Shown here: piece by piece, positions 22,738-61,866 of the stretch
How the letters are laid out: each line of letters starts with the position of its first letter
Position numbering within the stretch: position 1 is the stretch's first letter
From: Escherichia coli
GTDB lineage: Bacteria; Pseudomonadota; Gammaproteobacteria; Enterobacterales; Enterobacteriaceae
Assembly: GCA_009729775.1 (NCBI GenBank)
Contig: GCA_009729775.1_4081.1
Reading direction: 5' to 3' (one strand)
Length of the DNA: 64,000 bases
The notes under the pieces: generated by a model
Databases searched by the model: none
Told to the model about the DNA's origin: nothing
The model's input: only the letters and a program-made list of their open reading frames with translations
Program-made: the position numbers and the translations under genes

Positions 22738-23037
22738 TTATAAACAGTTAATTACTCCGGTGTGCGTTACTTTCTCAGTATCCATCACAGTGACCGAACC
22801 GCGTTTAGTACTGGCATCATAATAAATTGTTGTGCTACCGTTTTTGTCTTCTTCATGGAACGGGCCGTTTTTAAATGCTTCCGGCTGGATCTCTAAATCC
22901 TTTAATACAATCTCGCCAGTTCTTTCATCGGTCATTGCAACAGTGCACTGAATGAATTTTTCACTACTTACATCTAATGACGCATTAACAGCGAAAGAGG
23001 AAACAGATAAAGCCAGGGCGATGATTGCAATTTTCAT
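22738..23037 (-). CDS. secreted small protein with signal peptide (99 aa)
   Basis: N-terminus MKIAIIALALSVSSFAVNAS; AAGGATA RBS. Confidence 0.6.
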   Translation of the reverse strand: MKIAIIALALSVSSFAVNASLDVSSEKFIQCTVAMTDERTGEIVLKDLEIQPEAFKNGPFHEEDKNGSTTIYYDASTKRGSVTVMDTEKVTHTGVINCL

Positions 23038-30160: not shown

Positions 30161-30168
30161 TTTATTCC

Positions 30169-30803: not shown

Positions 30804-30804
30804 A

Positions 30805-31232: not shown

Positions 31233-31334
31233 GTGTAGTTCTCCTTATATTCCTTCTATAGTACACCAGTACTGAAAGGATGTCAAGGGTTTTCTTTATG
31301 GGGTAAATATGATATAATGAATAAGGAGGGATTT

Positions 31335-32483: not shown

Positions 32484-32491
32484 ATTAATAT

Positions 32492-32520
32492 GCCAGTACT
32501 TGATACTGGCTTTTCTTATT
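32492..32520 (+). terminator. rho-independent terminator of RCC1 cassette
   Basis: GCCAGTActtgaTACTGGC hairpin followed by T-run; repeated after every paralog. Confidence 0.7.
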
Positions 32521-32533
32521 GTATTAAATATAG

Positions 32534-32556
32534 TATAATGAATAAAGGAGGGAATT
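32534..32556 (+). promoter_or_regulatory. conserved cassette promoter/RBS (TATTAAATATAGTATAATGAATAAAGGAGG)
   Basis: TATAAT box and AAGGAGG RBS conserved upstream of each RCC1-like gene; promoter class not resolved. Confidence 0.5.
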
Positions 32557-33666
32557 ATGTTACCTTTTGCAAGGATGGTTAAGTACGGAAATATTGTACC
32601 TGGTCCTAAAAATATAATTAAAGTTGGTGCTTCTACACAAGGACAATTCTTATTGACTGATTCACATGATTTATATTACATAGGTAGAAATCAAGGTGGT
32701 GAATCTGGAAATGGTAATACCAACACGGTATCTTCATGGATATTAGTAAGTGCAGATGTTTCTAATTTTTTCGTGGGTGATCGTACACTTGTTATTATTA
32801 AAAATGATAATACGATATGGACATCAGGTCAAACGTACTGGTTCTCATCTTCTACAACTACTTCTTACAGTACTGTATTAGTTGAAAGAACTAATTGGTT
32901 TACCAATGCTATACCAGTAAGTGAAATTGCTAATATTGTATGTACAAATGGTTTAATATTTGTACTTAGCACTAATTCAGTACTCTATGGTGCAGGAGAT
33001 AATGGATATCGTGGTTCTTTGGGTATTGGTTCCTCATCAATTTACACATTAACTCAATGTGCTACGAACGTTCGTAAAGTAATGACCAATGCGAATGATA
33101 GTATGTATCTTACATTAGATAATAAGCTATATAGTTCTGGATGGAATAGTAGTGGGCAGCATGGTACGGGGAACCAAACACAAATTAACACTTGGGGATT
33201 GCGTAGTTCTGGTGTAATCGATGCAGCCATTGGTGGTAATGCATTAAATTACTATAATGGTACATCATATTTCGTATGTGGTCAAACTCCAAACTTTCTT
33301 AGTTCAGGTACGACTACATTCCGTGCAGTTCCTGTAAGTACCTTGCCTAATAGTTCTCCATTGTTTATGACGAATTCACCTGCCTTAAATACTGCTACAC
33401 AAATGGTAATTACTAGTACATATCAGAAGGGTGTTGGGGCGAACCGTGGTTTGGGATTAAACAATTCCCAAACTGGTGCTATATATAGTGCTACCAATTT
33501 ACAATTACCCGTTGAAGTTAGTGAGATTAGGGATGTTCTTTTTAGTGATGGTTTGACATCGTTATTAACCAAAAATGGAGATGTGTATAGTACTGGATCG
33601 TATTACGCCATTCCAGGTGCAATCGAGGATGTTGCAGTCTTTACTAAAATTGATTTACCAAAATAA
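32557..33666 (+). CDS. RCC1-like beta-propeller repeat protein, paralog 2 (369 aa)
   Basis: MLPFARMVKYGNIVP start; SGWNSSGQHGTGN and similar repeats. Confidence 0.75.
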   Translation: MLPFARMVKYGNIVPGPKNIIKVGASTQGQFLLTDSHDLYYIGRNQGGESGNGNTNTVSSWILVSADVSNFFVGDRTLVIIKNDNTIWTSGQTYWFSSSTTTSYSTVLVERTNWFTNAIPVSEIANIVCTNGLIFVLSTNSVLYGAGDNGYRGSLGIGSSSIYTLTQCATNVRKVMTNANDSMYLTLDNKLYSSGWNSSGQHGTGNQTQINTWGLRSSGVIDAAIGGNALNYYNGTSYFVCGQTPNFLSSGTTTFRAVPVSTLPNSSPLFMTNSPALNTATQMVITSTYQKGVGANRGLGLNNSQTGAIYSATNLQLPVEVSEIRDVLFSDGLTSLLTKNGDVYSTGSYYAIPGAIEDVAVFTKIDLPK

Positions 33667-33673
33667 CATAATG

Positions 33674-33704
33674 CCAGTACTTGATACTGGCTTTTATTTT
33701 TTGA
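33674..33704 (+). terminator. rho-independent terminator of RCC1 cassette
   Basis: GCCAGTACTTGATACTGGC plus T-run. Confidence 0.7.
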
Positions 33705-33736
33705 TTAAATATAGTATAATGAATAAAGGAGGAATT

Positions 33737-43723: not shown

Positions 43724-44061
43724 TAGTACCTCGCATCAGGAACTTTAGCACGTAACTTATGAACGACTGGGAACAACAACAAACTTACATATGCAATAGT
43801 TGAACCCCAATAGAATACTAATACAATTGGTTCACCATTAGAACGGAAACCTCTACTAATCATTGAGTAGTGAATAATAGGCATAATCATCGCCATACCA
43901 AACCATGCGTGTAATTTTAATTGCAGCATGTTATCAGCGATGAATACTGAAATTGGTCGTTTGAAGAACCACATCAGAAAGTAGAATCCAGCACTAATAA
44001 TATAGTACATGGTACTAACTTTCATATACCACGGCAGTAAGTGTAAAAAATATTCCATCAT
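43723..44061 (-). CDS. small membrane protein paralog (112 aa)
   Basis: WFFKRP motif after first helix. Confidence 0.6.
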   Translation of the reverse strand: MMEYFLHLLPWYMKVSTMYYIISAGFYFLMWFFKRPISVFIADNMLQLKLHAWFGMAMIMPIIHYSMISRGFRSNGEPIVLVFYWGSTIAYVSLLLFPVVHKLRAKVPDARY

Positions 44062-44405
44062 TCCTCCGGTATCTTGTTTCGAAGGTCAATCATAACACAA
44101 CAAAGTTTAATGATCAAGTGAAAAACTACACATATCATACCAATTGTTCCATAAACGACTGAAAAAGCAGGTAGTGCTTTTCCGGCTAGAACAGCCACAA
44201 TACATGCAATCAATGTTGATGCAAACAACGATTGATTAATGAAAGAATTCATAAAATCTTCACCATTACGCTTATAGAATTGTCGTTTAAAATACCATCC
44301 TAGAAACATAACTACCCAAAATGTTACATAACCTGTTAGAATAATCCCTGCAATTGAATGTGCAACTGGACTACTCCTTAAAAACTCAAGATAAGCTTCA
44401 AACAT
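44058..44405 (-). CDS. small membrane protein paralog (115 aa)
   Basis: WYFKRQFYKRNGEDF motif. Confidence 0.6.
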   Translation of the reverse strand: MFEAYLEFLRSSPVAHSIAGIILTGYVTFWVVMFLGWYFKRQFYKRNGEDFMNSFINQSLFASTLIACIVAVLAGKALPAFSVVYGTIGMICVVFHLIIKLCCVMIDLRNKIPEE

Positions 44406-44743
44406 TAGAAGTCTCCGCGAATTTTATCTCTACCATGAATAATGAGATGGATTAAGTATACAACTAACCAAATGAACAACCCAAAGAATACAATATATTG
44501 TGAGATTGAGTTCAAGTGAGGATTGGCACAATAAATTAAGTGTGCCATAAGACCAACAATTGCAAACAAACCTTGAACAAGTGTGTAAAGAACTAGTGAT
44601 GAATTCCTCACTGGATACAGTTTAAAAACAATTTTCTTTTTAAAATACCACAGTACTACAACCAGTGCATGATAAAAGAAAAAACCAAAAAGATAAATCA
44701 AAGTAATACTAAGCATTGTATCTGACTTAAAGAATGTTAACAT
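44405..44743 (-). CDS. small membrane protein paralog (112 aa)
   Basis: Close paralog of 44743-45084 (WYFKKKIVFKLY, C-terminal RDKIRGDF). Confidence 0.65.
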   Translation of the reverse strand: MLTFFKSDTMLSITLIYLFGFFFYHALVVVLWYFKKKIVFKLYPVRNSSLVLYTLVQGLFAIVGLMAHLIYCANPHLNSISQYIVFFGLFIWLVVYLIHLIIHGRDKIRGDF

Positions 44744-45084
44744 TAGAAATCCCCTTTAATTCTATCACGAGCTTTAATAATAAAGTATATGCTACATACC
44801 AACAACCACACCATTAGACCTGAAAACACAAGATATTGTGTAATGTGTGGTGTATTATCAATTTGTAACATGTAAATCGCATATGTCATCACACCAAATA
44901 AAATAAACCCACCTTGGATAATACTATATAAAACTAAGACTACATTATCATCCGAATACAATTTAAAAACAATTTTCCTTTTAAAATACCACAGACTAAT
45001 TACAATTGAATGATAACACAAAAATACAAACATGTAAATTAGCGTGATACCAAGCATTGTATCTGAATTAAAAAACTCAAGCAT
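44743..45084 (-). CDS. small membrane protein paralog (113 aa)
   Basis: WYFKRKIVFKLY, C-terminal RDRIKGDF. Confidence 0.65.
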   Translation of the reverse strand: MLEFFNSDTMLGITLIYMFVFLCYHSIVISLWYFKRKIVFKLYSDDNVVLVLYSIIQGGFILFGVMTYAIYMLQIDNTPHITQYLVFSGLMVWLLVCSIYFIIKARDRIKGDF

Positions 45085-46131: not shown

Positions 46132-46326
46132 TCAACGTTTAACTGCACTATTCAATCCTTGATTTAAATCAATTACTGGAATTTCGGAACGTTGGTCAAA
46201 TGCGTATCCTAATCTGATTACACCATCAGCTTTACTCCCACCAACTGGATATAAATCTTTTTTTACTGTACATCCAGACATAATTGTCACACCTACTAAT
46301 ACTAAAATGGATAACATCTTTTTCAT
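46132..46326 (-). CDS. small lipoprotein (64 aa)
   Basis: Signal peptide with lipobox-like VTIMSGC. Confidence 0.55.
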   Translation of the reverse strand: MKKMLSILVLVGVTIMSGCTVKKDLYPVGGSKADGVIRLGYAFDQRSEIPVIDLNQGLNSAVKR

Positions 46327-46341
46327 TATGATTCCTCATTT

Positions 46342-47481
46342 TTATAAAATGACTTCACCAAAAATACCATTGATATCACGTTCAATGATGTATTCACCTT
46401 CATGTTCAGCTAAGAACTTTTTAATGGCTTCGTTAACTTTAGGACGATGAATGTTGTTGAATGTTTCAGTGCAACCATCTCCCTTTTCATAATAACCTTT
46501 ATTATATAGTTTACCACATAACGCAATTGTATGTATTATTATTTCCAATTCTCTAGCAAGTTTCCCACCCACATTCTTATGAAATAAAATGGAAATTTCA
46601 TTACTCCAAAAATTATCTACTTTATATATTTTTTTATAAGATAAGTTTTGTGGACTTAATCTTGCTTTAATAGTTTTGTTTGTAATACCAGCTTTATCCG
46701 AATTTTTTGCATAATCATTGTGAATATAAAATCTTCCAGGCTTGGAAGTTTTAAATCCTTTTACTGCACACGTGGGACAACCAGAACCAGACAGATGTGA
46801 ATTTGGTGTTTGTTGAAATTCACCATGTTCTTTGCATATTATAATAGAGGTTACTTGGTTGTTAATGTAGTCATATAAAGAATAATCATACTTATTTCCG
46901 TGTATAAGATGTGATTTTTTTATAAATTCACCTAAAGTTTGTTTTAAAGTTTGTTTCGTGCATTCTTGACAACCAATTTTACCAGTAGCTAAGTCAGTAA
47001 TTGTGGGTTTTTTTATATCACCACAATCATTACATACTACTTCAATTTTAGTTCTACTAGGAAGTCTAGAGTTAAACGAAGTTATTCCACTATAAGTAAA
47101 TTTATCATAACCATATTTTTTGTTGATGACACTAATATGATTAATGGTGTAATATGGAATATTAATAATATTGTAAAAAATCTTACCATTAAATCCCTGC
47201 CTAATAAAATTCGTGCAGGTGGCTCCAATAACTAACATACCATCGTTATTCACTACAAGTTTGGTTTTTGATTTAGATATATAATCTTGTGATCTATTGA
47301 TATAGAATCCAAGAACTCTTGGATCATTTATTTCACCCATAATACTAATAGGATCTTGAGCAATGTTGGATTTTTTTACAAAATTTATATCTTCGGCTTT
47401 CATCCACTCAAAAAGCATTCCATGCTCTTCATAAAAATAAACTTTTTCACCATCTTCATTAAAATAGTACTGTTCAAACAT
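46342..47481 (-). CDS. Zn-ribbon protein with GIY-YIG-like segment, possible nuclease / homing-endonuclease-like (379 aa)
   Basis: Duplicated KYxYD...C-x2-C / GCPTC cysteine motifs and GRFYI-x10-AGIT-x6-R resembling GIY-YIG; function tentative. Confidence 0.35.
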   Translation of the reverse strand: MFEQYYFNEDGEKVYFYEEHGMLFEWMKAEDINFVKKSNIAQDPISIMGEINDPRVLGFYINRSQDYISKSKTKLVVNNDGMLVIGATCTNFIRQGFNGKIFYNIINIPYYTINHISVINKKYGYDKFTYSGITSFNSRLPSRTKIEVVCNDCGDIKKPTITDLATGKIGCQECTKQTLKQTLGEFIKKSHLIHGNKYDYSLYDYINNQVTSIIICKEHGEFQQTPNSHLSGSGCPTCAVKGFKTSKPGRFYIHNDYAKNSDKAGITNKTIKARLSPQNLSYKKIYKVDNFWSNEISILFHKNVGGKLARELEIIIHTIALCGKLYNKGYYEKGDGCTETFNNIHRPKVNEAIKKFLAEHEGEYIIERDINGIFGEVIL

Positions 47482-47734: not shown

Positions 47735-47767
47735 TAATTATAGCAAAAAGGGCTGACCGAAGTCAAC
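47735..47767 (-). terminator. dual terminator/promoter stem-loop cassette
   Basis: GGGTTGACttcgGTCAGCCC with UUCG loop, U-run, TTGACT in stem and TATAAT 18 nt downstream (minus strand). Confidence 0.6.
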
Positions 47768-47775
47768 CCTTTATG

Positions 47776-51254: not shown

Positions 51255-51599
51255 CTATCGATTCGGCATATTCTTTCGTAGTCGCAAGAGAAATTCAACC
51301 ACTGACCATGTTGTAATGAAGGCTATATAAGTTGCAAGGAATCCAGTAAGAATAAATGCAACCAGCGTACTACCATTTGGGGAATCAGTTTTAATGCCGA
51401 TGACACCATCGGCTACAGTGAAACATGTAGCCATTAATGTGTAACCTACGTACAACACAAAGAAAAACTCATTCTCCATTGAAGGATAGAAACGGTTAAA
51501 CACTTTATAAAATTTAAAGTACAGTAGGATTATACCAACAAAGGCATAGAATGTAAACAGTGTTGTTATAATATATGAGATTAGGTTCAAATTATACAT
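51255..51599 (-). CDS. small membrane protein paralog (about 114 aa)
   Basis: LYFKFYKVFNRFYP motif; C-terminal LRLRKNMPNR. Confidence 0.6.
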   Translation of the reverse strand: MYNLNLISYIITTLFTFYAFVGIILLYFKFYKVFNRFYPSMENEFFFVLYVGYTLMATCFTVADGVIGIKTDSPNGSTLVAFILTGFLATYIAFITTWSVVEFLLRLRKNMPNR

Positions 51600-51600
51600 A

Positions 51601-51948
51601 TCAACGCTCCGGTAGATTATCACGTAATGTTTTAATTCGATGATACATTTTCATACCAATATTACCAAAGATACCATATCCAAGTACTAAAATGTATGCA
51701 ATAAGCATAGTAATAATTACTATAGTGCCAAAACTATAATGTACACTACTGATACCCATTGTAGTTTCAACGATTATTTGAGAAACTGAAAGAATCAAAA
51801 GTACAACTACAATTGGATGATTTGGGTACATTCGGTTGAACAACGTTTTGTACTTAAAGAAGCACAGTACTCCACCGAATAAGAAGTACACAATGTAAAT
51901 GCAAGCAACAGCATAGGCAAACATGTTAGTGTAATAAATCATTACCAA
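51601..51948 (-). CDS. small membrane protein paralog (115 aa)
   Basis: CFFKYKTLFNRMYP; C-terminal LRDNLPER. Confidence 0.6.
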   Translation of the reverse strand: MVMIYYTNMFAYAVACIYIVYFLFGGVLCFFKYKTLFNRMYPNHPIVVVLLILSVSQIIVETTMGISSVHYSFGTIVIITMLIAYILVLGYGIFGNIGMKMYHRIKTLRDNLPER

Positions 51949-51951
51949 TCC

Positions 51952-52290
51952 TTACTTTTCAGGGATATTAGAACGCCATATATCAATGCGATGAACTAGT
52001 CCAAAGAACAACCATACTGGAACGGCAGCTATCATAACAAAAAATGAAAACCCAGTCAACACCGATACCAGATTTAATTCATCAGTACTATACCCACATA
52101 TCAGTACTTCTAATATTCCCCACGTACATGCACAAAACATCAAGAATGAAATTGGGGCATCATAGTAGATACGTTCATATAAAGTAGTGTATCGGAAGAA
52201 TGCAATAATGTAGCAAAACATATAATACACCCAAACCAAAGATACTACATAAAATGATACTTTGTTTATTAATTCAAAATATTGTTCCAT
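51952..52290 (-). CDS. small membrane protein paralog (112 aa)
   Basis: AFFRYTTLYERIYY; C-terminal WRSNIPEK. Confidence 0.6.
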   Translation of the reverse strand: MEQYFELINKVSFYVVSLVWVYYMFCYIIAFFRYTTLYERIYYDAPISFLMFCACTWGILEVLICGYSTDELNLVSVLTGFSFFVMIAAVPVWLFFGLVHRIDIWRSNIPEK

Positions 52291-52574: not shown

Positions 52575-52578
52575 TATT

Positions 52579-52992
52579 TTATCCTTTTACACAATTTGTC
52601 ATAATGTAAACACGTTTAATAAAAGAACTTTCATACACGTACTTCAACTTGCCATTCTCACGTAAGCGGTGGAAAACATCACCTTTGTTAGTACTCCATG
52701 TGGAACCAGTACTAGCATCGACATTAGCCATCGACCCACTGGTTACATTAATACCGTACTTAAAACTAAAAGTATCCCCGTCTTCAACTAATGTCACAGG
52801 TGCACTACGTTCATGTTCAAATACAAGTTTAGAACCAATCATCTCATATGATTTCAATTTACACTTCATTACACCCATTTCATCTTGAGTGGGGAGATTT
52901 CTTTCAAATATATCAGACACTTCGTTTGCAGAAGCAAATGAACTCATTGTCATTAATACAATACTAGTTACAATTAAAATAATATTTTTCAT
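52579..52992 (-). CDS. secreted protein with signal peptide (137 aa), paralog of 53761-54180
   Basis: Signal peptide MKNIILIVTSIVLMTMSSFASA; shared GD-FSF-Y ... VF-R-RE-G-LKYVYES block. Confidence 0.65.
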   Translation of the reverse strand: MKNIILIVTSIVLMTMSSFASANEVSDIFERNLPTQDEMGVMKCKLKSYEMIGSKLVFEHERSAPVTLVEDGDTFSFKYGINVTSGSMANVDASTGSTWSTNKGDVFHRLRENGKLKYVYESSFIKRVYIMTNCVKG

Positions 52993-53049
52993 AGTGTATT
53001 TGTCTCTTTGTTTATGGTTTATTAAGAATACACCAGAACATCAGTTCTG

Positions 53050-53691
53050 TCAATAAAAAACTGGATCTTCTTCAGTAATTGGTATTTCTCTACGCACATC
53101 ACACGAAAGAGGATCAGTAATGAATACATTCCCATCTTTATCCATCATCACATTACTTGAATGAATGTCTGGTACAAAACGCCCGTGAAATTCTTTCATG
53201 ATGTTAGCAGCGACCGTTGCAATAGCAATCTCTTCAGAATTTCCACGCATATCATTCACTGAAGTTGCGTACTGACCAGCATGTGCATACGAATACAAAT
53301 CACCAATTTTAGTACTAACAAAGTCATCATAATTATTTTTTTGTTTAATTATAGGATAGTACTTGTCCATCTCATACCATCCAAAGTTTCCTTGTTCGTT
53401 TGCACTGTAGATCACTGGAAGAAACTTGGTTCCTGCGTTTTCAATGCAGTACTTTGCATAAGCACGAAAACCATCCCAGCGTGAAGTGGTTACTTTAAAT
53501 GCACGCCCAGGATAGTTTTTATGTTCAACTACTACAGAGTACATCCCCATTCCAAGCAAAGTAAGTTCAGCAGCTTTAACTTGTGGAAAGATTACGCGTT
53601 CAGCATAAGGAATATCAAACTCCATCGCACAACGAGTTTTTGATGGACGCAAAATGTCAATTAAAGTTTTGAATATTTCTTGCTTAGTCAT
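53050..53691 (-). CDS. putative kinase-like protein (about 213 aa)
   Basis: Start adjusted to MTKQEIFK...; FVPDIHSSNVMMDKDGNVFITDP resembles the catalytic loop and metal-binding D of small-molecule/atypical kinases. Confidence 0.35.
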   Translation of the reverse strand: MTKQEIFKTLIDILRPSKTRCAMEFDIPYAERVIFPQVKAAELTLLGMGMYSVVVEHKNYPGRAFKVTTSRWDGFRAYAKYCIENAGTKFLPVIYSANEQGNFGWYEMDKYYPIIKQKNNYDDFVSTKIGDLYSYAHAGQYATSVNDMRGNSEEIAIATVAANIMKEFHGRFVPDIHSSNVMMDKDGNVFITDPLSCDVRREIPITEEDPVFY

Positions 53692-53719
53692 TACTTTATC
53701 CTCTGTAGTTAATATCAAC

Positions 53720-53753
53720 ATCATAACAAAAAAGGCTGACCGAAGTCAACCCT
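53720..53753 (-). terminator. dual terminator/promoter stem-loop cassette
   Basis: GGTTGACttcgGTCAGCC hairpin, U-run, TTGACT-N18-TATGAT on minus strand. Confidence 0.55.
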
Positions 53754-53760
53754 TTTATTA

Positions 53761-54180
53761 TCATTTACAGTTTTCTATAACTATTGCACGTTTTAGTATT
53801 TTACTTTCATAAACATACTTAAGATGACCTTCTTCACGAATACGATTGAACACATATCCTAGTTTATCTTTTAGTACTGAAGCGGTATCAATGTCAAGAT
53901 TAACTTCAACCCCTCCTGTTAATTTAACTTTATATGTAAAGCTAAAAGCATCACCAGATTCAACCAATGGGACTACTTGTTCATACGTATTCAACATAAC
54001 TCGTTCATCATCAACTAAATTATATATTACTATATCACAAGTTTTTACCCCAATTTCCTCTAAGGTAGGAGCATTGTCTACTATAACATCTTTTACTGTA
54101 TTTGCAACCTGTTTAGCATCTGCTGCATATACATTAAAACTAAAAAGTACTAAAATAATACTTAAAAAAATCTTTTTCAT
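53761..54180 (-). CDS. secreted protein with signal peptide (139 aa), paralog of 52579-52992
   Basis: Signal peptide MKKIFLSIILVLFSFNVYA. Confidence 0.65.
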   Translation of the reverse strand: MKKIFLSIILVLFSFNVYAADAKQVANTVKDVIVDNAPTLEEIGVKTCDIVIYNLVDDERVMLNTYEQVVPLVESGDAFSFTYKVKLTGGVEVNLDIDTASVLKDKLGYVFNRIREEGHLKYVYESKILKRAIVIENCK

Positions 54181-54189
54181 TATATATCC

Positions 54190-54519
54190 TTATTTTATTT
54201 TACACGTCATATCGGGTTGTGCTGGTTTATTATTTTTAAACGGATTAGGTTTTTTATCTTTCTTTTTATCTTTTAAAGGTTTTTTGTCTTCTTTTTTATC
54301 TTTATCTTTGTCTTTTTTATTGTTATCAGGTTCGGTTGGAGTATTACATTGTGCTGGTGATGGGTTCGTCGGGTTACAGCTATTGTCGGGTGGGAGTTTT
54401 ACTTCTTTACAATTGTAAAATAGTAAACTTTTATTTGTGGTTAAATTATGAAAACGATAGTTACGTTCATTATTATAATAAATTTTTTTAGTACTTTCAA
54501 TGTCATTACACATTGCCAC
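54190..54519 (-). CDS. Lys/Asp-rich low-complexity protein (109 aa)
   Basis: KKDKDKDKKEDKKPLKDKKKDKKP run. Confidence 0.45.
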   Translation of the reverse strand: MAMCNDIESTKKIYYNNERNYRFHNLTTNKSLLFYNCKEVKLPPDNSCNPTNPSPAQCNTPTEPDNNKKDKDKDKKEDKKPLKDKKKDKKPNPFKNNKPAQPDMTCKIK

Positions 54520-54523
54520 GGAA

Positions 54524-54775
54524 TCACCGAAACTCTTTTTCTATTCCGAGTACATCCGTCTTACGCTCAGATAGTATACCTGAAGTATATGAATCTTTGT
54601 TGTCAAACGCATTAAATCCAATAGTTCTGTCGGTGTCGTGTATTATTCCTTTTGTGTATGAGGTAGTATAGAACTCCCCATTTCTGAAATCCTGCCTTGC
54701 TACGGAGCAATGATAATCTGCACCATAAGCAGTACTGGAAAATAATACAATTCCAAATATAATATATTTTTTCAT
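54524..54775 (-). CDS. secreted small protein with signal peptide (83 aa)
   Basis: MKKYIIFGIVLFSSTAYGA. Confidence 0.6.
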   Translation of the reverse strand: MKKYIIFGIVLFSSTAYGADYHCSVARQDFRNGEFYTTSYTKGIIHDTDRTIGFNAFDNKDSYTSGILSERKTDVLGIEKEFR

Positions 54776-54802
54776 TGTAATCCTCTTCTTAATTCCTCTT
54801 TT

Positions 54803-54834
54803 GTATTTACAAAAAAAGGCTGACCGAAGTCAAC
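54803..54834 (-). terminator. dual terminator/promoter stem-loop cassette
   Basis: GGTTGACttcgGTCAGCC hairpin plus U-run; TTGACT in stem. Confidence 0.55.
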
Positions 54835-54845
54835 CTTTAGTTTTA

Positions 54846-56390
54846 TCATTTACCGTATTTGCTCATGATGTCCTTTTCCCAATGAGTTACGTTACCGTTA
54901 TCGTAATCTTTAAAGGAATTATCAAGAGTAGTTAATGCATATTCGTATGCTTCAGGTGATTCAATGTCAACATCATCAGCACCATTTACTAAATCAGTCC
55001 ATGCTTTTTGTAGTTTACGAGCATTTTTACCAACATTACTTTTAATCCAACTAATGTTTTTGTTGATACTCTTATTATCAGCACCAGCTTTTTTACCAAT
55101 ATCGGATATCCACATCATTAGCTTTTGGAGTTCATGAATGGAGTTGTCGTTCATTTCACGATCTTTAGCCAATTCTGCTTCCATGCCATCAGTATCAGTA
55201 CCATCTTTAGAACCTACATCAATTCCATGTTTAGCTAATAGTTTACCAAGTTCAAAGAATGCTGCCTCAGCAGGGAAGTCATAACCTTTGTCTTTGTAGT
55301 TGTTCCATGCACTATCAAACTCATCTACAAATCGGTTGGCATAATCTGGATTGTCCACGAGAGCTTTGTACACTGCCATTGCATGTTCAAATCCTTCTTT
55401 GTCAGAACCAAACTCTCCCATTTCTGGACGATGAATGTAACCATCCATATCAACAGTATCAGGTAAATCATCATGAGATGTTTCAGCATCTTTCTGGTCA
55501 ACTGCACCTTCTTCATCTGCACGAACTAAGTAACCATCTTTTGATACTTTCTCACCATGTTCAGCTTCATACTTTTTCATAGTATTGAATGCAGAATTCA
55601 TAACAGTGATGAATCGAGACTTCTCACCTGGTGAGTAAGAATCTAATGCTGCTTTAATAGCATCATGTACTAATTGAATCTTATCATCTTTGCCTTCAAG
55701 ACGATTTTCTAACTTAGCAAGAACATTCTTAACTTGCTGGGCGTTAGCACGGTCTTCTTTACCTATACGGTTAACAGTATGGAGGATGCTTTCAAGACTT
55801 GCTTCTTCAGCAGTCGCTTCTTCTTGACCTTCAAGTGCACGCATGATAGTACTGAATACTTCAGTTGGTTCAGTACTGGTATTTCCACTCATTGCATCAA
55901 GTACAGCTTGTGCTTTGACTTTTAATTCTTCTTTAGGTACAGATTGCAATTCTTTCACAATACCTTGGATAAGTTGTGGTTTATTAGCAAAAATCTTACC
56001 TAACTTATCAGACAATTCTTTGACAGGGTTAACCGCCTTTGGTGCTTCTTGTTTTGGTTCTTCTTTCGCAGGAGCAGACTTTTCTTTTTCTTCACGTTCC
56101 ATATCAGCTAGGCGTTGTTTTTGTGTAGCATTAAGAAGTCCCAATGAATTAACATAACGTAGCTTTTCTAGCTCAGTCATGTTCTCAGTACTCTTAACTT
56201 CACCTGCTTCTGCGTTTGCTTTACCAGCTAGACCAGTTCCTTGGTTACGTGATCCACGTGAACCTTGACCTGCTTGATAACTATTTGGTCGGCGGTTGCG
56301 TTCACTCCATTTATCAGAGTGACCAGCCATGTTACCACCATTTTTATCAGTAAAATTACTTGGCATTTGATTTCTCTCCATAGATTTCAT
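54846..56390 (-). CDS. large charged protein (514 aa), function unknown
   Basis: ORF track; N-terminal LEKLRYVNSLGLLNATQKQRL block shared with 56636-57019. Confidence 0.7.
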   Translation of the reverse strand: MKSMERNQMPSNFTDKNGGNMAGHSDKWSERNRRPNSYQAGQGSRGSRNQGTGLAGKANAEAGEVKSTENMTELEKLRYVNSLGLLNATQKQRLADMEREEKEKSAPAKEEPKQEAPKAVNPVKELSDKLGKIFANKPQLIQGIVKELQSVPKEELKVKAQAVLDAMSGNTSTEPTEVFSTIMRALEGQEEATAEEASLESILHTVNRIGKEDRANAQQVKNVLAKLENRLEGKDDKIQLVHDAIKAALDSYSPGEKSRFITVMNSAFNTMKKYEAEHGEKVSKDGYLVRADEEGAVDQKDAETSHDDLPDTVDMDGYIHRPEMGEFGSDKEGFEHAMAVYKALVDNPDYANRFVDEFDSAWNNYKDKGYDFPAEAAFFELGKLLAKHGIDVGSKDGTDTDGMEAELAKDREMNDNSIHELQKLMMWISDIGKKAGADNKSINKNISWIKSNVGKNARKLQKAWTDLVNGADDVDIESPEAYEYALTTLDNSFKDYDNGNVTHWEKDIMSKYGK

Positions 56391-56413
56391 TTTTTCTCTA
56401 TGTCTATATTTAT

Positions 56414-56444
56414 AGTATAAAGAAAAGGCTGACCGAAGTCAACC
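56414..56444 (-). terminator. dual terminator/promoter stem-loop cassette
   Basis: GGTTGACttcgGTCAGCC hairpin; TTGACT-N17-TATACT on minus strand. Confidence 0.55.
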
Positions 56445-56452
56445 TTATTTTG

Positions 56453-56566
56453 TTACTTAGATTGTTCTTGTGCAGGTGGATTTACTTTTTGATCCACTAC
56501 ATAGAATACACCACCAACCAGAACTGCGGCGATGAGTGCAGCAACTACAAATTTCAAACCTTGCAT
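56453..56566 (-). CDS. small membrane peptide (37 aa), not in ORF track
   Basis: Hand translation MQGLKFVVAALIAAVLVGGVFYVVDQKVNPPAQEQSK; GAGGT RBS; sits between two cassettes. Confidence 0.5.
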   Translation of the reverse strand: MQGLKFVVAALIAAVLVGGVFYVVDQKVNPPAQEQSK

Positions 56567-56595
56567 ATATGATACCTCAGTTATATTGAGAAGTT

Positions 56596-56629
56596 ATGAT
56601 ACAACAAAGGGCTGACCTTAGTCAACCCC
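56596..56629 (-). terminator. dual terminator/promoter stem-loop cassette (variant loop)
   Basis: GGGGTTGACtaagGTCAGCCC hairpin; T-run on plus side, TTGACT-N18-TATCAT on minus. Confidence 0.5.
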
Positions 56630-56635
56630 TTTTTA

Positions 56636-57019
56636 TTACTTCTTGAACTTATGTTTTTCACTTTCGATTGCATTCACGATTTCATCATGAATTTTACGAA
56701 GATTGTGAGTTTTCTTGAGAGAATCATGCAATGCACGGAATGCAGAGTGTACAGTTGCTTTAAAGTGCTCTTTAGGAGTTACTTTAAGTTTCTCGATAAT
56801 ATCACGTACATAGATTGGGTGATCCTCAAACACACGATTAAGCTCATGACCTAGTGATTCTAGGCTAAATGCTTTTTCACGGGATGGACGATCATGTGCA
56901 AGACTTTGGTCTGGTTTTAGAAGACCTAGTGAATCTAGATACTTGTGCTTATGTGCATTGTCTAGACCAGAAATATCAACATCATGTGATGGATCTTTCT
57001 TATTCCATTTATCAACCAT
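56636..57019 (-). CDS. hypothetical protein (127 aa)
   Basis: HKHKYLDSLGLLKPDQ block similar to N-terminus of the 514-aa protein. Confidence 0.6.
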   Translation of the reverse strand: MVDKWNKKDPSHDVDISGLDNAHKHKYLDSLGLLKPDQSLAHDRPSREKAFSLESLGHELNRVFEDHPIYVRDIIEKLKVTPKEHFKATVHSAFRALHDSLKKTHNLRKIHDEIVNAIESEKHKFKK

Positions 57020-57134
57020 TTTTATAACTCCTATAAGAGATAAATTTTACTATAATATTTATAGTTCCGTTGTCATTTATATCGAATGACATAAAACATT
57101 ATATCATAATAAGAATGGTTGTCCCAAAGTTAAA

Positions 57135-57578
57135 TTAGTACTGATCAAGTTCAGATGTAAAAATGAATGCATCCATGTCTTCCAACGTAAGTTTTAAGTC
57201 TGGTACATACTTAAGAATAACGCACTCTGGCTTCTTAATAGCAGCTTGATAAGCAGCAATGGCAAGGGATTCCAACTGCTGTGCTGTATAATTTTTACGT
57301 TCTGCATTAAAAACTTTGTTTTTGATATCACCACCTGGGAGTTTTTCAAACTCACGCATAACTGCGGTAAGAACATCGTCAGCAGTGTTACTATATACCC
57401 ATTGGGGTAATTGCATTACATTATAAATCACACCACTATCATCCATCAAAGAGATCCATTTGTACCCATCACTAGCACTGAACAAACGCCCTTTTAGTAC
57501 TGTGTTATTAGTTAAATTTACAAATGCAAAAATATCTTGTTCGTTAAGTTCAATACTATTAACATTTACCCAACTCAT
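57135..57578 (-). CDS. hypothetical protein (about 147 aa)
   Basis: Start adjusted to MSWVNVNSIEL... Confidence 0.55.
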   Translation of the reverse strand: MSWVNVNSIELNEQDIFAFVNLTNNTVLKGRLFSASDGYKWISLMDDSGVIYNVMQLPQWVYSNTADDVLTAVMREFEKLPGGDIKNKVFNAERKNYTAQQLESLAIAAYQAAIKKPECVILKYVPDLKLTLEDMDAFIFTSELDQY

Positions 57579-57591
57579 TACGATTCCCCAT

Positions 57592-58188
57592 TCATAAATC
57601 ACGAACAATATTCATTAAACACAATTTAGGTTTTATAGCATTCAACACCCATATGCATTCTTTGTAAGTAGCTATTATATCATCTAAATGCTCAGTTACA
57701 ATGCTTTCTTGAAAATATTCTTCATCATTGAGCTTTGCTAATTTAGTAACATCACACGTAGGCACTATAGGTCTGGATTGTACACCCATTCCATTATTGA
57801 TATTAGTGAAATGTACAAAATGGTACTTCACAACACCTTTATCTAGATTTATTATACATGACAAATTTTCCAACTCAGTTAGCTTTTTATTACAAGTAAC
57901 ATTAATGAAACCAGCATTATAGGCTCTATAATCATCTACTGATATCTCAAGATCATTACGCTCAAATATAAGTGAGATGAGTTGGTCGAGTGGTTTGACA
58001 TTCATATATTTTAATGAATTTACGTATGATACTTCAATCTTAGATGAAATTATCTTTTTACTAAGTGCAGTTAAATCTTTGTTAGATTTAACTGTTAAAA
58101 CAATAGGTTTAAACCTAGAACTTTTGTTCTTTTTTGATACTTTAAAACGACCTTTACGATTCATAATTTCCTCAATTAATAATTTCAC
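57592..58188 (-). CDS. family-B-like protein (198 aa), EEYFQESIV motif
   Basis: ORF track; family motif. Confidence 0.6.
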   Translation of the reverse strand: MKLLIEEIMNRKGRFKVSKKNKSSRFKPIVLTVKSNKDLTALSKKIISSKIEVSYVNSLKYMNVKPLDQLISLIFERNDLEISVDDYRAYNAGFINVTCNKKLTELENLSCIINLDKGVVKYHFVHFTNINNGMGVQSRPIVPTCDVTKLAKLNDEEYFQESIVTEHLDDIIATYKECIWVLNAIKPKLCLMNIVRDL

Positions 58189-58393
58189 ATTTAACGTGTG
58201 GTTTATATAGCATAATTAACCCATTTTTAAGTACAATGATTGTTGCTCTGTTAGTAATCGAAACGTTTTTAATTATACTTTTTTTATATGTTTCAACATA
58301 TTTCTCTTCATAATTTATACATTTAACATATTCTTTTTGTTTAGCACTTACAACAGTACTGAATAATATCAGTACAAGTACTATATATTTCAT
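58172..58393 (-). CDS. secreted small protein with signal peptide (73 aa)
   Basis: MKYIVLVLILFSTVVSA. Confidence 0.55.
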   Translation of the reverse strand: MKYIVLVLILFSTVVSAKQKEYVKCINYEEKYVETYKKSIIKNVSITNRATIIVLKNGLIMLYKPHVKCEIIN

Positions 58394-58445
58394 TACTATA
58401 CCTTATAAACAAAAAGGAATTCATTTAAGAATTCCTATTTTACAA

Positions 58446-58739
58446 TCATTTATCTAACATACCATTGTGCAAACGTTCATATACTTCAGTTCGACGCAAA
58501 TTAACAATATCTTCTGCGTATTTTAATGTAAATGCCCATGCTTTTGGATGTACGTTAAGCTTCATACGAATTCGATTTTTCATCAACTCTCCACTTAAAC
58601 GAATAAATTCGTGTACACCACGACTACCGTATTCAGTAATTAAATCATTAATGTACATATCACGAAGAGTTTCATCTGCACATTCTTTAACCATTTCTAC
58701 GTCAGCGACGATGCTTTCATTAACTGAAGTACTGATCAT
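58446..58739 (-). CDS. hypothetical protein (97 aa)
   Basis: ORF track. Confidence 0.55.
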   Translation of the reverse strand: MISTSVNESIVADVEMVKECADETLRDMYINDLITEYGSRGVHEFIRLSGELMKNRIRMKLNVHPKAWAFTLKYAEDIVNLRRTEVYERLHNGMLDK

Positions 58740-58751
58740 TTTTAATTTACC

Positions 58752-59018
58752 TTATTTAAATTCGACTGTAATTTTATCACCTTCAACTACGAACTTACAG
58801 TTGTAGCGACGTGCCATATCCATGTACATATGCTCAGAGTACCAAGGAACATCAATAATCGGATGCTCTGCATATTGTAGAACTTCACGGTCGCCCACTG
58901 TAGTAATGATGAAAGGAATGTTCATCTCTCGTAAAAACAGTTCAGCACCAGGAGAACGATTAATAAATTCAGTATCATTACGTAAAGTAAATCCATTATA
59001 TTGTAATTTAAGCTTCAT
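58752..59018 (-). CDS. hypothetical protein (88 aa)
   Basis: ORF track. Confidence 0.55.
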   Translation of the reverse strand: MKLKLQYNGFTLRNDTEFINRSPGAELFLREMNIPFIITTVGDREVLQYAEHPIIDVPWYSEHMYMDMARRYNCKFVVEGDKITVEFK

Positions 59019-59032
59019 ATGTTATCCTCTAT

Positions 59033-59377
59033 TCAATACCATTCTTTAAAACCATTAAGTTCGGCTACGTGAGTGATTATAACACATATAACATTCAGGT
59101 CAAGTATAATTTGATCATAATTTAATTTTATACGATCATCATTATATGCTCTAAAAACTACATCGTAATCAAAGAAATTTGCGTTTTCATCATTCATTGA
59201 AACGATTCGGTATCTACGTCTTCCATCTGTATTGAATATAGTTAAACACTGTTGAAACTTTCTCATTAACTGTTTAGATAGGATATTATAATATTCAATA
59301 TCTTTTTGTGAATTACGTGGGTCATCAGGAAGATAGAATGAAACAAATTTCTTTAATTCTATTTGAGTTTTATCCAT
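59033..59377 (-). CDS. hypothetical protein (114 aa)
   Basis: ORF track. Confidence 0.55.
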   Translation of the reverse strand: MDKTQIELKKFVSFYLPDDPRNSQKDIEYYNILSKQLMRKFQQCLTIFNTDGRRRYRIVSMNDENANFFDYDVVFRAYNDDRIKLNYDQIILDLNVICVIITHVAELNGFKEWY

Positions 59378-59810
59378 ATATTACCTCATTTGTTTCTCTT
59401 TTACTTTGTCGGAACTCATCCTTTGCTTCCTTAACTGACATGATACGAACTAATTTAGCACTACCGCAATAGTACTGAACCTGATTACGACCAATGTCTA
59501 CATGGTGGTCTGGAACTTCATATACAGATATAGCAAACCCAGCACGATGCAATTTACCCAAGTCCATAGTGAAGAATCTGAACAAATCTTTCAAACTTTG
59601 ACAGCCAAATACCCATCCACTTTTGATTGAATAGATCCCATCCTCAGTTGGTTCAGGTTGGAATTGAGAAGGTGTAGTCATAAGCAAACGGTCAAATCCA
59701 TTTTTAGTACTGTATCTGGTTGAATACCGTGCAAACGGACCTACAGTTCGTGCAGGATCTAAGTTAGGTTCAATGTAACTAAATTTAAGTTCAAAACGAT
59801 ATACATACAT
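59370..59810 (-). CDS. hypothetical protein (146 aa)
   Basis: ORF track. Confidence 0.6.
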   Translation of the reverse strand: MYVYRFELKFSYIEPNLDPARTVGPFARYSTRYSTKNGFDRLLMTTPSQFQPEPTEDGIYSIKSGWVFGCQSLKDLFRFFTMDLGKLHRAGFAISVYEVPDHHVDIGRNQVQYYCGSAKLVRIMSVKEAKDEFRQSKRETNEVIYG

Positions 59811-59838
59811 AATTAAAATCCTCTAATTTATTAAGAGA

Positions 59839-59870
59839 ATTATAACAAAAAAGGCTGACCGAAGTCAACC
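59839..59870 (-). terminator. dual terminator/promoter stem-loop cassette
   Basis: GGTTGACttcgGTCAGCC hairpin; TTGACT-N18-TATAAT on minus; stop codon of upstream gene lies in the stem. Confidence 0.55.
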
Positions 59871-60056
59871 TTTGTTTTGAAGTTCTTGAACTAATTGTCG
59901 TACTTCGTTAATATTTTTACACTGCTTTACAGTGAAGTAATCATACTTACGACCATAGGTTCTTGGGTCATCACCTTCCATATACTGCTGCACATCAAAG
60001 ATTTGTAAGTAGGGATGCTGCATAACACGAATATTACCACCTTGATAAATCAACAT
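59865..60056 (-). CDS. hypothetical protein (about 63 aa)
   Basis: Start adjusted to MLIYQGGNIRV... Confidence 0.45.
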   Translation of the reverse strand: MLIYQGGNIRVMQHPYLQIFDVQQYMEGDDPRTYGRKYDYFTVKQCKNINEVRQLVQELQNKG

Positions 60057-60060
60057 AATA

Positions 60061-60411
60061 TCAATCCTTATATTTACACAAGCCACCAAAACTAGTTTCT
60101 TTAGCACCACGACGCATCATAACTAATTTAGCATATTGTGTACCATTACTATCTTCATATACATCTACTTCAATAAACGCTAAGAAGTTAGGATCTGTGT
60201 CGTTAGAAAACTCAGTGAAGCTAATGTCGCCCACTGTATGCTCTTTAACAAACGTATATGATTGTCCATCAATATATACAATATCTCGATCGTCACTATC
60301 ACCTTGATAGATATGTTTAATATTACCATCTGTACAAACTAAACCTTCCAATGGTTCAGCATATGACAATCCACACATTAACATACATACAAAAAATAAA
60401 ATAATTTTCAT
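60061..60411 (-). CDS. secreted protein with signal peptide (116 aa), paralog of 60802-61161
   Basis: MKIILFFVCMLMCGLSYA signal; shared central block. Confidence 0.6.
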   Translation of the reverse strand: MKIILFFVCMLMCGLSYAEPLEGLVCTDGNIKHIYQGDSDDRDIVYIDGQSYTFVKEHTVGDISFTEFSNDTDPNFLAFIEVDVYEDSNGTQYAKLVMMRRGAKETSFGGLCKYKD

Positions 60412-60413
60412 GA

Positions 60414-60791
60414 TTATTTTCCTCCAACGTTAAGTGATTTCTTGTACTGATATTCTTTATAAGTACTATACCATATATCACCAACGTAAATCAAGTACCA
60501 CGTAGCAGGATAAAGAGCCAATCCAGTACTGATGTATACGAACTTTTGGTCAAGGACATCAAATACATACAGAAGGAAAGTTACTCCCATAATGCAAGAA
60601 CAAATTAACCACAAGTTATAAGCAATCGAATCGCAAGCAAAAATAGAATCAAGCTTAGAAATTAGGACATATTTGTTTGTTAACATGAAATGAATTACTG
60701 CAACTAAACAATATCCTGCCATAAAAATAGAAATTAAAAAAGACAGAATAATTGGAATATTCAACAACAAAAGTAAAATAGTGTTTACCAT
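60414..60791 (-). CDS. multi-pass membrane protein (125 aa)
   Basis: Hydrophobic helices. Confidence 0.6.
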   Translation of the reverse strand: MVNTILLLLLNIPIILSFLISIFMAGYCLVAVIHFMLTNKYVLISKLDSIFACDSIAYNLWLICSCIMGVTFLLYVFDVLDQKFVYISTGLALYPATWYLIYVGDIWYSTYKEYQYKKSLNVGGK

Positions 60792-60801
60792 TTTTTAAGT
60801 C

Positions 60802-61161
60802 CTATATTTCACAGTGTAAGTTCAATTTATCTATATCTAGGTCACGGCGTACCGATGAGTCCAAGTAAATTACTATATAGATATCACCATTACCAGTTCT
60901 TGGGTCTACAATTAATATTACGTTTGCTAATGTACCAGAATCATCTCTATAAGTCGAGATTTTTTTATTACCGATAATACTTTCTACTTTAAAACGATAA
61001 ATCACACCATCAACAACTATATTTTTACCATTTCTAGGGTCGTTAGTCAATACATGCCACGTTCCCTTAGTACTACGACAATATGTTTCTGCTGGTGCAC
61101 CATAACTAAAACATGAAAATAATGCACACACAAGTGCTATTAATTTTATATAACTCTTCAT
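60802..61161 (-). CDS. secreted protein with signal peptide (119 aa)
   Basis: MKSYIKLIALVCALFSCFSYGA signal. Confidence 0.6.
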   Translation of the reverse strand: MKSYIKLIALVCALFSCFSYGAPAETYCRSTKGTWHVLTNDPRNGKNIVVDGVIYRFKVESIIGNKKISTYRDDSGTLANVILIVDPRTGNGDIYIVIYLDSSVRRDLDIDKLNLHCEI

Positions 61162-61239: not shown

Positions 61240-61566
61240 TTACATCTTATTCGTGAACTTGAATTTGATAATATCAATCCAAATTTTAACATTTCCTGCA
61301 AATAGTGCTTTGATTAGCCACATAATTGCAACAAAGTTCTCAACTAAATCCAAAGTTTTAACTACTGCACCGAGTGGGAAGATAAAACTCAAAACCCATA
61401 CAATTACTGAAACCACAACGACTGTATAGAAAATACGCACAATCGGTGAATCAAGCATAAACAACTCAGAGAACTCTTTTTTATCATTATCATCAGTAAT
61501 AAAGCATTCGTAAACCAGAAGCCAAATCAGAATTAAAGACGGAATTGAAATTAGTACTGATAGCAT
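61240..61566 (-). CDS. membrane protein (108 aa)
   Basis: Hydrophobic helices. Confidence 0.55.
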   Translation of the reverse strand: MLSVLISIPSLILIWLLVYECFITDDNDKKEFSELFMLDSPIVRIFYTVVVVSVIVWVLSFIFPLGAVVKTLDLVENFVAIMWLIKALFAGNVKIWIDIIKFKFTNKM

Positions 61567-61623
61567 ATTTTTTACCTCAAGTTTAAGTGTTAAGTTTCAG
61601 ACTACAGGAACCATTATACAGTA

Positions 61624-61866
61624 CTACGAACGTTTGTCAACATTTGTTTCTTCAATAAGCATAAGATAACTTAACACGAAGAGTAATACCGAAATAATAT
61701 CAATAACTGTAAAGCTCACTGGAATGATAATAGACACCAGTACTAATGCCACGTTTAGCAAGAATACAGTAGTGAGATCTACCATCGTTCGTCTAGTGGC
61801 TAATGCCACTAGTGTAGGATAGAACATAAACAATAGTGCGACAACAAAACTTAGTACTAGATACAT
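61624..61866 (-). CDS. small membrane protein (80 aa)
   Basis: Two to three hydrophobic helices. Confidence 0.55.
   Translation of the reverse strand: MYLVLSFVVALLFMFYPTLVALATRRTMVDLTTVFLLNVALVLVSIIIPVSFTVIDIISVLLFVLSYLMLIEETNVDKRS

Follow-up and report, generated by a model that had tools for sequence, protein, structure and literature searches.

What use might a bacteriophage make of a whole set of small proteins sent into the envelope of its host? The question is raised by a stretch of 64,000 nucleotides filed under Escherichia coli (assembly GCA_009729775.1, contig GCA_009729775.1_4081.1), referred to here as the window, in which an earlier note had pointed out seven small secreted proteins, including two paralogous pairs, and one lipoprotein, and had proposed that they serve envelope remodelling, receptor masking or exclusion. 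The answer favored here, tentatively, is that the exported proteins are periplasmic binders or inhibitors that protect the envelope of the infected cell, with one pair, B1 and B2, predicted to fold into small β-barrels of the kind found in inhibitors of peptidoglycan hydrolases.

Between 52 and 62 kb, the window is 98.1% identical to Escherichia phage SHEFM2K and 96–98.5% identical to phages G17, slurp01, PBECO4 and 121Q. All five are RaK2-like jumbo myoviruses of the genus Asteriusvirus, with genomes of ∼350 kb, and on these identities the window is Asteriusvirus-type jumbo coliphage DNA. Every gene of the set is annotated as a hypothetical protein in the public records. A literature search found no work on Asteriusvirus signal peptides, on the label “lytic conversion lipoprotein” or on phage-encoded PliC-like proteins, and a scan of IMG/VR anchored on the structural protein recovered 121Q alone.

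Seven small proteins with predicted signal peptides

The eight open reading frames (ORFs) of the earlier note are present, all on the minus strand, and are labeled as follows (a slash marks the predicted cleavage site).

A1: 52579..52992, minus strand, exported 137-residue protein, paralogue of A2; cleavage ASA/NE; signal-peptide score 6.13
A2: 53761..54180, minus strand, exported 139-residue protein; cleavage VYA/AD; N-terminal helix followed by a β-barrel predicted
S3: 54524..54775, minus strand, exported 83-residue protein; cleavage AYG/AD; score 5.34; PHROG 28901, function unknown
S4: 58172..58393, minus strand, exported 73-residue protein; cleavage VSA/KQ; score 6.95; N- and C-terminal Cys pair
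S7: 22738..23037, minus strand, isolated exported 99-residue protein; cleavage VNA/SL; score 5.99; PHROG 31669, function unknown
B1: 60061..60411, minus strand, exported 116-residue protein; cleavage SYA/EP; predicted eight-stranded antiparallel β-barrel
B2: 60802..61161, minus strand, exported 119-residue protein, distant B1 paralogue by hhalign (96.3%, E 1.9e-9)
Lipoprotein: 46132..46326, minus strand, predicted, 64 residues; lipobox IMSG/C

Signal peptides were sought with a heuristic that requires positive charge in the n-region, a hydrophobic h-region free of charged residues, a polar c-region with small residues at positions −3 and −1 and no further membrane segment, applied to all ORFs of at least 50 residues in six frames (291 ORF/start variants). 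Exactly seven ORFs score 5.3 or higher (range 5.3–7.0), and these are precisely the seven that had been listed as secreted, namely those at 22738, 52579, 53761, 54524, 58172, 60061 and 60802; no ORF in a noncoding frame reaches 5.3. By the heuristic, each of the seven has the n-, h- and c-regions, the small −3/−1 residues and the lack of a further membrane segment that characterize Sec substrates of signal peptidase I, and none contains a lipobox. The h-region of a signal peptide generally spans ∼7–15 residues, and the h-regions found by the heuristic are short, at 8–11 residues. The ORF at 46132 carries a candidate lipobox, IMSG/C.

A clear Shine-Dalgarno sequence lies 6–10 nucleotides upstream of seven of the eight ATG codons; that of A1 is weaker (GAGA, ∼12 nucleotides upstream). 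Five exported ORFs were compared with their orthologues in phage fEgEco12 (49–78% identical), giving nonsynonymous values (pN) of 0.13–0.33 and synonymous values (pS) of 0.54–0.79. Because pN is far below pS, these five ORFs are real genes under purifying selection, and the genes of the set as a whole are almost certainly real. In orthologues from fEgEco12, ph0011, JNE01 and Klebsiella phage K64-1, at 31–80% identity, the signal peptide differs in sequence and its n/h/c architecture and AXA-type site are retained. This comparative retention is the strongest argument for export. Independent support is provided by cysteines: in five of the seven signal-peptide ORFs, drawn from four families (A1/A2, B1/B2, S4 and S7), one Cys lies near the mature N terminus and one within a few residues of the C terminus, both are invariant wherever orthologues exist, and paired cysteines fit an oxidizing periplasm. 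The seven proteins are thus very probably exported to the periplasm, as predicted from sequence.

Envelope-targeted products of the window comprise the seven signal-peptide proteins, the lipoprotein and 13 multi-pass membrane proteins (of 142 ORFs), and all but one are encoded within 42–62 kb, by hydropathy and the signal-peptide scan. None of the 13 predicted multi-pass membrane proteins lies outside this third of the window. Of the seven signal-peptide genes, six fall among 18 of the 142 coding-strand ORFs (hypergeometric P ∼1e-5, for a region chosen post hoc).

Start codons in the databases are inconsistent for these genes. The profiles of PHROG 27330 and 25709 begin at residue 10–11 of B1 and B2, and the PBECO4 entry for A2 has only 78 residues; with such downstream starts, the signal peptide is lost from those entries.

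The B1/B2 pair and its membrane-protein neighbors

The genes of B1 and B2 are not adjacent, but are separated by that of a small membrane protein, and further membrane-protein genes lie upstream.

TM125: 60414..60791, minus strand, 3–4-pass membrane protein between B2 and B1 (hydropathy); PHROG 31707, function unknown
TM108: 61240..61566, minus strand, multi-pass membrane protein whose gene opens the B transcription unit (hydropathy)
TM80: 61624..61866, minus strand, 3-pass membrane protein just upstream of the module promoter (hydropathy)
Promoter-like site: 61613..61640, minus strand, perfect sigma-70 consensus TTGACA-16-TATAAT (12/12 matches), upstream of TM108-B2-TM125-B1-g63
Hairpin: 59851..59872, minus strand, composite terminator/promoter hairpin GGTTGAC-TTCG-GTCAGCC, T-run and TATAAT, closing the B unit

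The earlier description of B1 and B2 as a second secreted pair is borne out, as distant paralogues. BLASTP detects the relationship weakly (23% over 69 residues, E 2e-7), and profile–profile comparison by hhalign, with five orthologues per profile, returns 96.3% probability at E 1.9e-9. In a full-length alignment of 18 B-family sequences, both cysteines are invariant. Klebsiella phage K64-1 retains the order TM80-TM108-B2-TM125-B1 with one extra zinc-finger gene inserted, and its module proteins are 24–46% identical to those of the window (B2 31%, TM108 30%, TM80 46%). Because K64-1 belongs to a different genus, Alcyoneusvirus, and has both copies in the same order, the duplication is old; by these comparisons, B1 and B2 are old, distant paralogues. 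An exhaustive HMMER search with the B profile found only ∼10 small clusters, all of the same architecture, and no link to a bacterial family. Weak matches of the profile to large choline-binding and amidase proteins were judged to be spurious repeat matches and were rejected. Among relatives, phage EJP2 encodes diverged B-like proteins.

A model of mature B1, built from the 18-sequence alignment (pLDDT 83.8, pTM 0.73), contains eight antiparallel strands. The first and last of these, which close a meander barrel, carry Cys8 (strand 1) and Cys94 (strand 8). The model of the slurp01 B1 orthologue in the BFVD database superposes on this model with a TM-score of 0.91. In fold searches, the B1 barrel is closest to the periplasmic peptidoglycan-hydrolase inhibitors PliC, MliC and PhiA. 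MliC and PliC are periplasmic proteins or lipoproteins that adopt an eight-stranded barrel stabilized by a conserved disulfide (PMC2267010), and the B1 model is likewise a small eight-stranded antiparallel β-barrel. Similar to the B family, E. coli MliC has one Cys near the mature start and one near the end. These models indicate that B1 and B2 probably form a PliC-like barrel, a resemblance that suggests a role in envelope protection. A BFVD search with the B1 fold returned uncharacterized phage proteins only. Among BFVD entries, A0A097EXD3 (phage 121Q, 93 residues) has a predicted fold that resembles B1 (TM-score 0.64, 19% identity), and sequence searches may thus miss some members of the barrel family in these genomes.

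Turnover of the exported genes and the elements at their borders

A1 and A2 are 39% identical over 131 residues (E 1e-32) and, as had been noted, flank a kinase-like gene.

Kinase: 53050..53724, minus strand, T7 gp0.7-like protein kinase between A2 and A1; PHROG 15752, E 6e-97

The kinase, whose start is annotated at 53691 in relatives, is cytoplasmic and lies outside the exported set. The three genes are part of a turnover region, the stretch between a 514-residue structural gene and g93, for which at least five arrangements are found.

Window and SHEFM2K: S3 - g107 - A2 - kinase - A1
G17, 121Q and PBECO4: S3 - g107 - A2 - kinase
Ecwhy_1 and fEgEco12: S3 - g107' - A1-like
JNE01: A1-like only
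ph0011: kinase only

A1 itself (pN 0.22, pS 0.65 against fEgEco12) occurs only in the window and SHEFM2K, and a version 65–68% identical to it is found in Ecwhy_1, fEgEco12 and JNE01. The kinase occurs without A genes in ph0011 and is absent from Ecwhy_1 and fEgEco12, which carry the A1-like copy. Because some relatives have the kinase and neither A gene, and others a single A copy and no kinase, A1/A2 and the kinase are not one functional unit, and a triad of A2, kinase and A1 was rejected. A recent insertion of A1 in the window was also rejected: comparison of G17 (L002, ∼2076–2136) with window positions 52575–53049 shows that G17 keeps an 18-nucleotide relic of the A1 3′ end, AATTGCGGTAAAGGATAA, between the kinase and g93; A1 was therefore lost by clean deletion in the G17-type lineage. 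Between S3 and A2 lies g107 (54190–54513), which is rich in Cys in its N-terminal half, ends in a low-complexity tail rich in Lys and Asp (KKDKDKDKKEDKK...), lacks a signal peptide and is missing from ph0011 and JNE01.

Between the window and fEgEco12, five exported orthologues are 49–78% identical and six membrane proteins 43–87%, whereas most cytoplasmic neighbors are 79–95% identical, with the exception of g107 (50%). By distribution and divergence, the exported genes are accessory and fast-evolving, as would be expected at an interface with a host or competitor. All families are confined to RaK2-like jumbo phages. Comparisons by hhalign of A with B, S7 with B and S4 with B detect no relationship beyond the signal peptide, and A, B, S4 and S7 are for that reason treated as separate families. 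Besides one lipoprotein, the set appears to comprise at least five families without detectable mutual relationship (A1/A2, B1/B2, S3, S4 and S7). Pfam, PHROGs, NCBIfam and PADLOC, scanned with every candidate and its neighbors, returned only PHROGs of unknown function and subthreshold noise, and profile searches of PDB sequences with the A, B and S3 families returned nothing below E 0.07.

The hairpin that closes the B unit recurs elsewhere in the window.

56425-56446, minus strand, identical or near-identical hairpin copy
54816-54837, minus strand, identical or near-identical copy, upstream of S3
53732-53753, minus strand, identical or near-identical copy, between A2 and the kinase
19087-19108, minus strand, further copy
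47749-47770, minus strand, further copy
∼56600-56640, minus strand, hairpin variant

The element, which runs from (A)AGGTTGACTTCGGTCAGCCTT through a T-run to a −10 box, is present in six copies in the window where none are expected. Each copy carries a −35 sequence, TTGACT, within the stem and a −10 box 17–18 nucleotides downstream, and the copies sit at the borders of cassettes whose content varies among relatives. A PeSL is defined by a stem-loop terminator that overlaps an early promoter of sigma-70 type and recurs at variable-gene borders, and the hairpin is a predicted PeSL-like composite of terminator and sigma-70-type promoter. In T4-type phages, PeSLs flank and shuffle accessory genes (PMC2839356, PMC4122927). 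The element found here is similar to these in its hairpin and T-run, in the −35 sequence within the stem and the −10 box after it, and in its position at the borders of variable cassettes; it differs in that it is found in a RaK2-like jumbo phage, that its motif sequence is clade-specific and that recombination and early timing are putative. PA5oct, a related jumbo phage, is dependent on the RNA polymerase of its host (PMC7318152). Early expression of the exported genes is plausible. Turnover of cassettes beside PeSL-like elements offers a tractable case of accessory envelope-gene shuffling in giant phages. Short matches to the hairpin element are found in CBB, GAP32 and Erwinia jumbo phages.

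Relatives carry further exported families in the same neighborhood that are missing from the window. These include an ORF at 5037–5333 of fEgEco12 (L006) and several in EJP2 (L007) and JNE01 (L009). One of the families, of 98–101 residues and encoded between the two structural genes, has the same design of signal peptide and Cys pair. Just beyond the equivalent of the window end, canonical lipoproteins with an LTA/C lipobox are annotated as “lytic conversion lipoprotein” (fEgEco12 13810–14085).

A proposed periplasmic protective role and its alternatives

In the proposed mechanism, host RNA polymerase would transcribe the genes from the sigma-70-type promoters embedded in the terminator hairpins. 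The Sec pathway would export the products, and signal peptidase I would cut them at the AXA-type sites, a prediction that draws on sequence and on what orthologues conserve. Once in the periplasm, the first-strand Cys would be joined to the C-terminal Cys by a disulfide, as the invariant Cys pairs suggest, yielding compact β-barrels. B1 and B2 would be periplasmic barrels whose genes are interleaved with those of three small inner-membrane proteins, in a module common to K64-1, and the exported barrels would act as binders or inhibitors that shield the envelope of the infected cell. The B module, like T4 Spackle plus Imm, would keep superinfecting phages from degrading the cell wall or penetrating the cell, or would block lysis from without, and A1/A2, S3, S4 and S7 would be exchangeable accessory binders.

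As a whole, this account of periplasmic binder or inhibitor proteins that protect the envelope is the best explanation at hand, although a tentative one that falls short of being probable. The narrower assignment of the B module to exclusion or to inhibition of muralytic enzymes, by analogy with Spackle and Imm, is possible but doubtful. The functions that the earlier note had offered fare unequally: an envelope or exclusion role is in keeping with the unusual envelope share of the region, the accessory and fast-evolving genes and the predicted lysozyme-inhibitor-like fold, and for receptor masking and envelope remodelling no direct evidence was found.

Several observations weigh against a protective, inhibitor-type role. 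The signal-peptide calls come from the heuristic, and export is a prediction. Small eight-stranded barrels are common, and other top matches to the B1 model are Tp0751, hemoglobin linker domains, an immunity protein of the type VI secretion system, avidins and lipocalins. PF09864 matches none of the 18 B-family members, even at E up to 10, and hhalign of the B family with E. coli MliC returns 2.7% probability, aligned on the signal peptide only. The lysozyme-contacting motifs of the MliC/PliC proteins are SxSGAxY and the xWxKGxEA region, and the corresponding MliC segments, SASGARY and FWSKGDEA, have no counterpart in any B-family sequence. Membership of B1 and B2 in the MliC family was rejected, as the sequence signature (COG3895/PF09864) and the motifs are absent. 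The A2 model is moderately confident and has no specific fold match, and for S3, S4 and S7 the evidence is confined to sequence. Finally, identical sigma-70-type hairpin promoters precede two virion structural genes; the hairpin promoters therefore indicate transcription by host polymerase and not its timing.

Among other readings of the same proteins, the one that survives best, though unlikely, is that they are ligand-binding or carrier barrels, similar to lipocalins or LolA, which would bind lipids, lipoprotein acyl chains, lipopolysaccharide precursors or small molecules, or coat an outer-membrane receptor, and so change the cell surface. These outcomes are the envelope remodelling and receptor masking for which direct evidence was not found.

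It is quite unlikely that the module controls the timing of lysis, with the small membrane proteins acting as holins or antiholins and B1 and B2 as periplasmic regulators, in the way that T4 RI acts on holin T, or as a restraint on endolysin. Small 3–4-pass membrane proteins interleaved with periplasmic proteins, and a B1 fold that resembles muramidase inhibitors, are what such a cassette might contain. However, neither an endolysin nor a spanin gene was found in the neighborhood, no holin match was obtained in Pfam or PHROGs, and holin and phage lysozyme genes are reported for fEgEco12 in a source that leaves their positions unstated (PMC13070987). The perfect sigma-70 promoter-like site also suggests transcription by unmodified host polymerase, not a late lysis cassette.

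Immunity-like barrels that counter toxins acting in the periplasm during the long cycle of a jumbo phage, such as amidase or muramidase effectors of the type VI secretion system, colicins or host proteases, would keep the infected cell alive, as protection from non-phage attack or as counter-defense. This reading is very unlikely: it is argued from the fold alone, PADLOC and Pfam lend it no support and the phage clade offers no precedent. Least probable is the absence of any exported repertoire, with the hydrophobic N-terminal stretches arising by chance or serving as uncleaved anchors, or with some ORFs not being genes; the home-made heuristic and the downstream starts of B1, B2 and A2 in several database annotations would allow for it, but the full-length starts with clear Shine-Dalgarno sequences (seven of eight, A1 being weaker), the short h-regions, which the heuristic puts at 8–11 residues, the AXA site and n/h/c architecture kept despite sequence change, the Cys pairs that make sense only in an oxidizing compartment and the strong purifying selection all argue against it.

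Comparison with known systems

The closest functional parallel to the proposed protective role is T4 Spackle (gp61.3), a disulfide-bonded periplasmic protein made early in infection, which inhibits the tail lysozyme gp5 and acts with the membrane protein Imm (PMC7677548). Spackle and Imm serve superinfection exclusion and resistance to lysis from without. Similar to Spackle, the B proteins are phage-encoded, small and signal-peptide-bearing, are predicted to be periplasmic and have membrane-protein genes alongside, and the fold-based inference for B1 and B2 points to a muralytic enzyme as a possible target. Spackle is an α-helical bundle with an allosteric mechanism (PMC7677548), whereas the models show B1 as an all-β barrel and A2 as β-rich, and the B module, unlike Spackle/Imm, holds two paralogues and three membrane proteins. 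The sole match to the Spackle family (PHROG 1586) is S7, at E 0.21 and confined to the signal peptide. For the known exclusion proteins Spackle, Imm, Llp and Cor, no family match was obtained in Pfam, PHROGs, PADLOC, NCBIfam or PDB sequences.

With respect to MliC/PliC (COG3895, PF09864) and the related-fold proteins Brucella PhiA and Neisseria ACP, the main differences are that the B family shares no sequence homology with them, is phage-encoded and found only in RaK2-like jumbo phages, and probably has a target other than c-type lysozyme. The families are new in that no described family includes them; exported accessory proteins encoded by phages are an already known kind. A conserved pair with a PliC-type fold, as modeled, among membrane proteins would be new for such phage proteins.

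In its most developed form, the proposal is that TM108-B2-TM125-B1, perhaps with TM80, constitutes an unrecognized module of RaK2-like jumbo phages for superinfection exclusion or resistance to lysis from without. Its two diverged PliC-fold barrels, kept at the inner membrane by the small membrane proteins, would each disarm its own target among the wall-degrading and penetration proteins of incoming phages. For the task that T4 gives to the unrelated, helical Spackle, the clade would have taken up a lysozyme-inhibitor fold of bacterial type, and the cassettes of A, S3, S4 and S7, which vary, would supply further, rapidly shuffled periplasmic inhibitors. This full scenario is rather unlikely as it stands.

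Jumbo phages are under development for therapy, and most of their genes have no known function. The present analysis converts eight “hypothetical proteins” into a concrete, testable set of small, predicted disulfide-held periplasmic barrels with partner membrane proteins. If the B module does inhibit muralytic or penetration enzymes, the problem that T4 solves with Spackle would have a second solution of independent structure, the PliC/MliC-type fold would extend to phages and cross-exclusion between phages in cocktails would be explained. If the genes instead prove to be ordinary accessory ORFans, better annotation is all that is gained; the starts in several database entries lie too far downstream.

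S3, S4, S7 and the predicted lipoprotein

S3 has a single conserved Cys. In the record of fEgEco12, its orthologue and two nearby genes are labeled “lytic conversion lipoprotein.” This label, the small size and predicted export of the proteins and the lipobox of the 46132 product recall T5 Llp and the Cor family, lytic-conversion lipoproteins that obstruct the receptor of the phage, but S3 differs in having neither a lipobox nor a sequence match to Llp or to PDB entries. An Llp-like lipoprotein was rejected for S3, as a lipobox and any match to the Llp family, PHROG or PDB sequences are missing. S4 is 49% identical in fEgEco12 with both cysteines kept and is absent from ph0011 and JNE01. S7 is 96% identical in SHEFM2K, and its Cys pair lies near the N and C termini.

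Compared with the lipobox consensus [LVI][ASTVI][GAS]C, the putative lipobox of the 46132 product, I-M-S-G-C, has an atypical Met at position −3. The gene is a rare accessory one and is absent from every Asteriusvirus in the phage collection. It was found on only four contigs of a large collection, each time behind a 379-residue DUF723 ORF. The product has a weak YecR-like match in Pfam (E 4.5e-4, below the cutoff) and no similarity to Llp. Its only matches in the phage collection are two Synechococcus phages, at 33% identity. In the window, the lipoprotein ORF lies directly behind the DUF723 ORF (46132–47481), where SHEFM2K annotates a larger homing endonuclease; PBECO4 has the DUF723 gene without the lipoprotein.

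Other features of the window

Directly downstream of A1 and g93 lies a further group of membrane-protein genes, which is part of the same envelope-targeted block as A1.

51255..52290, minus strand, three tandem paralogous 3-pass membrane proteins (hydropathy; PHROG 19285 in the SHEFM2K annotation)

At 42304–45084 and 51255–52290, 3-pass membrane proteins of ∼105–140 residues are encoded in two tandem arrays of paralogues, and these arrays, together with TM125, TM108 and TM80, make up the 13 multi-pass membrane proteins. On the plus strand, at ∼27600–41900, is a long run of tandem paralogues with RCC1 repeats (“regulator of chromosome condensation”) that coincides with a switch in GC skew; SHEFM2K has 15 such genes. 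In SHEFM2K (L004), ∼20 tandem 60-residue ORFs, many of them PHROG 11711, occupy 21684–26487, the equivalent of window ∼29–34 kb, and a second array of 60-residue ORFs, PHROG 4148, corresponds to window positions 600–2100.

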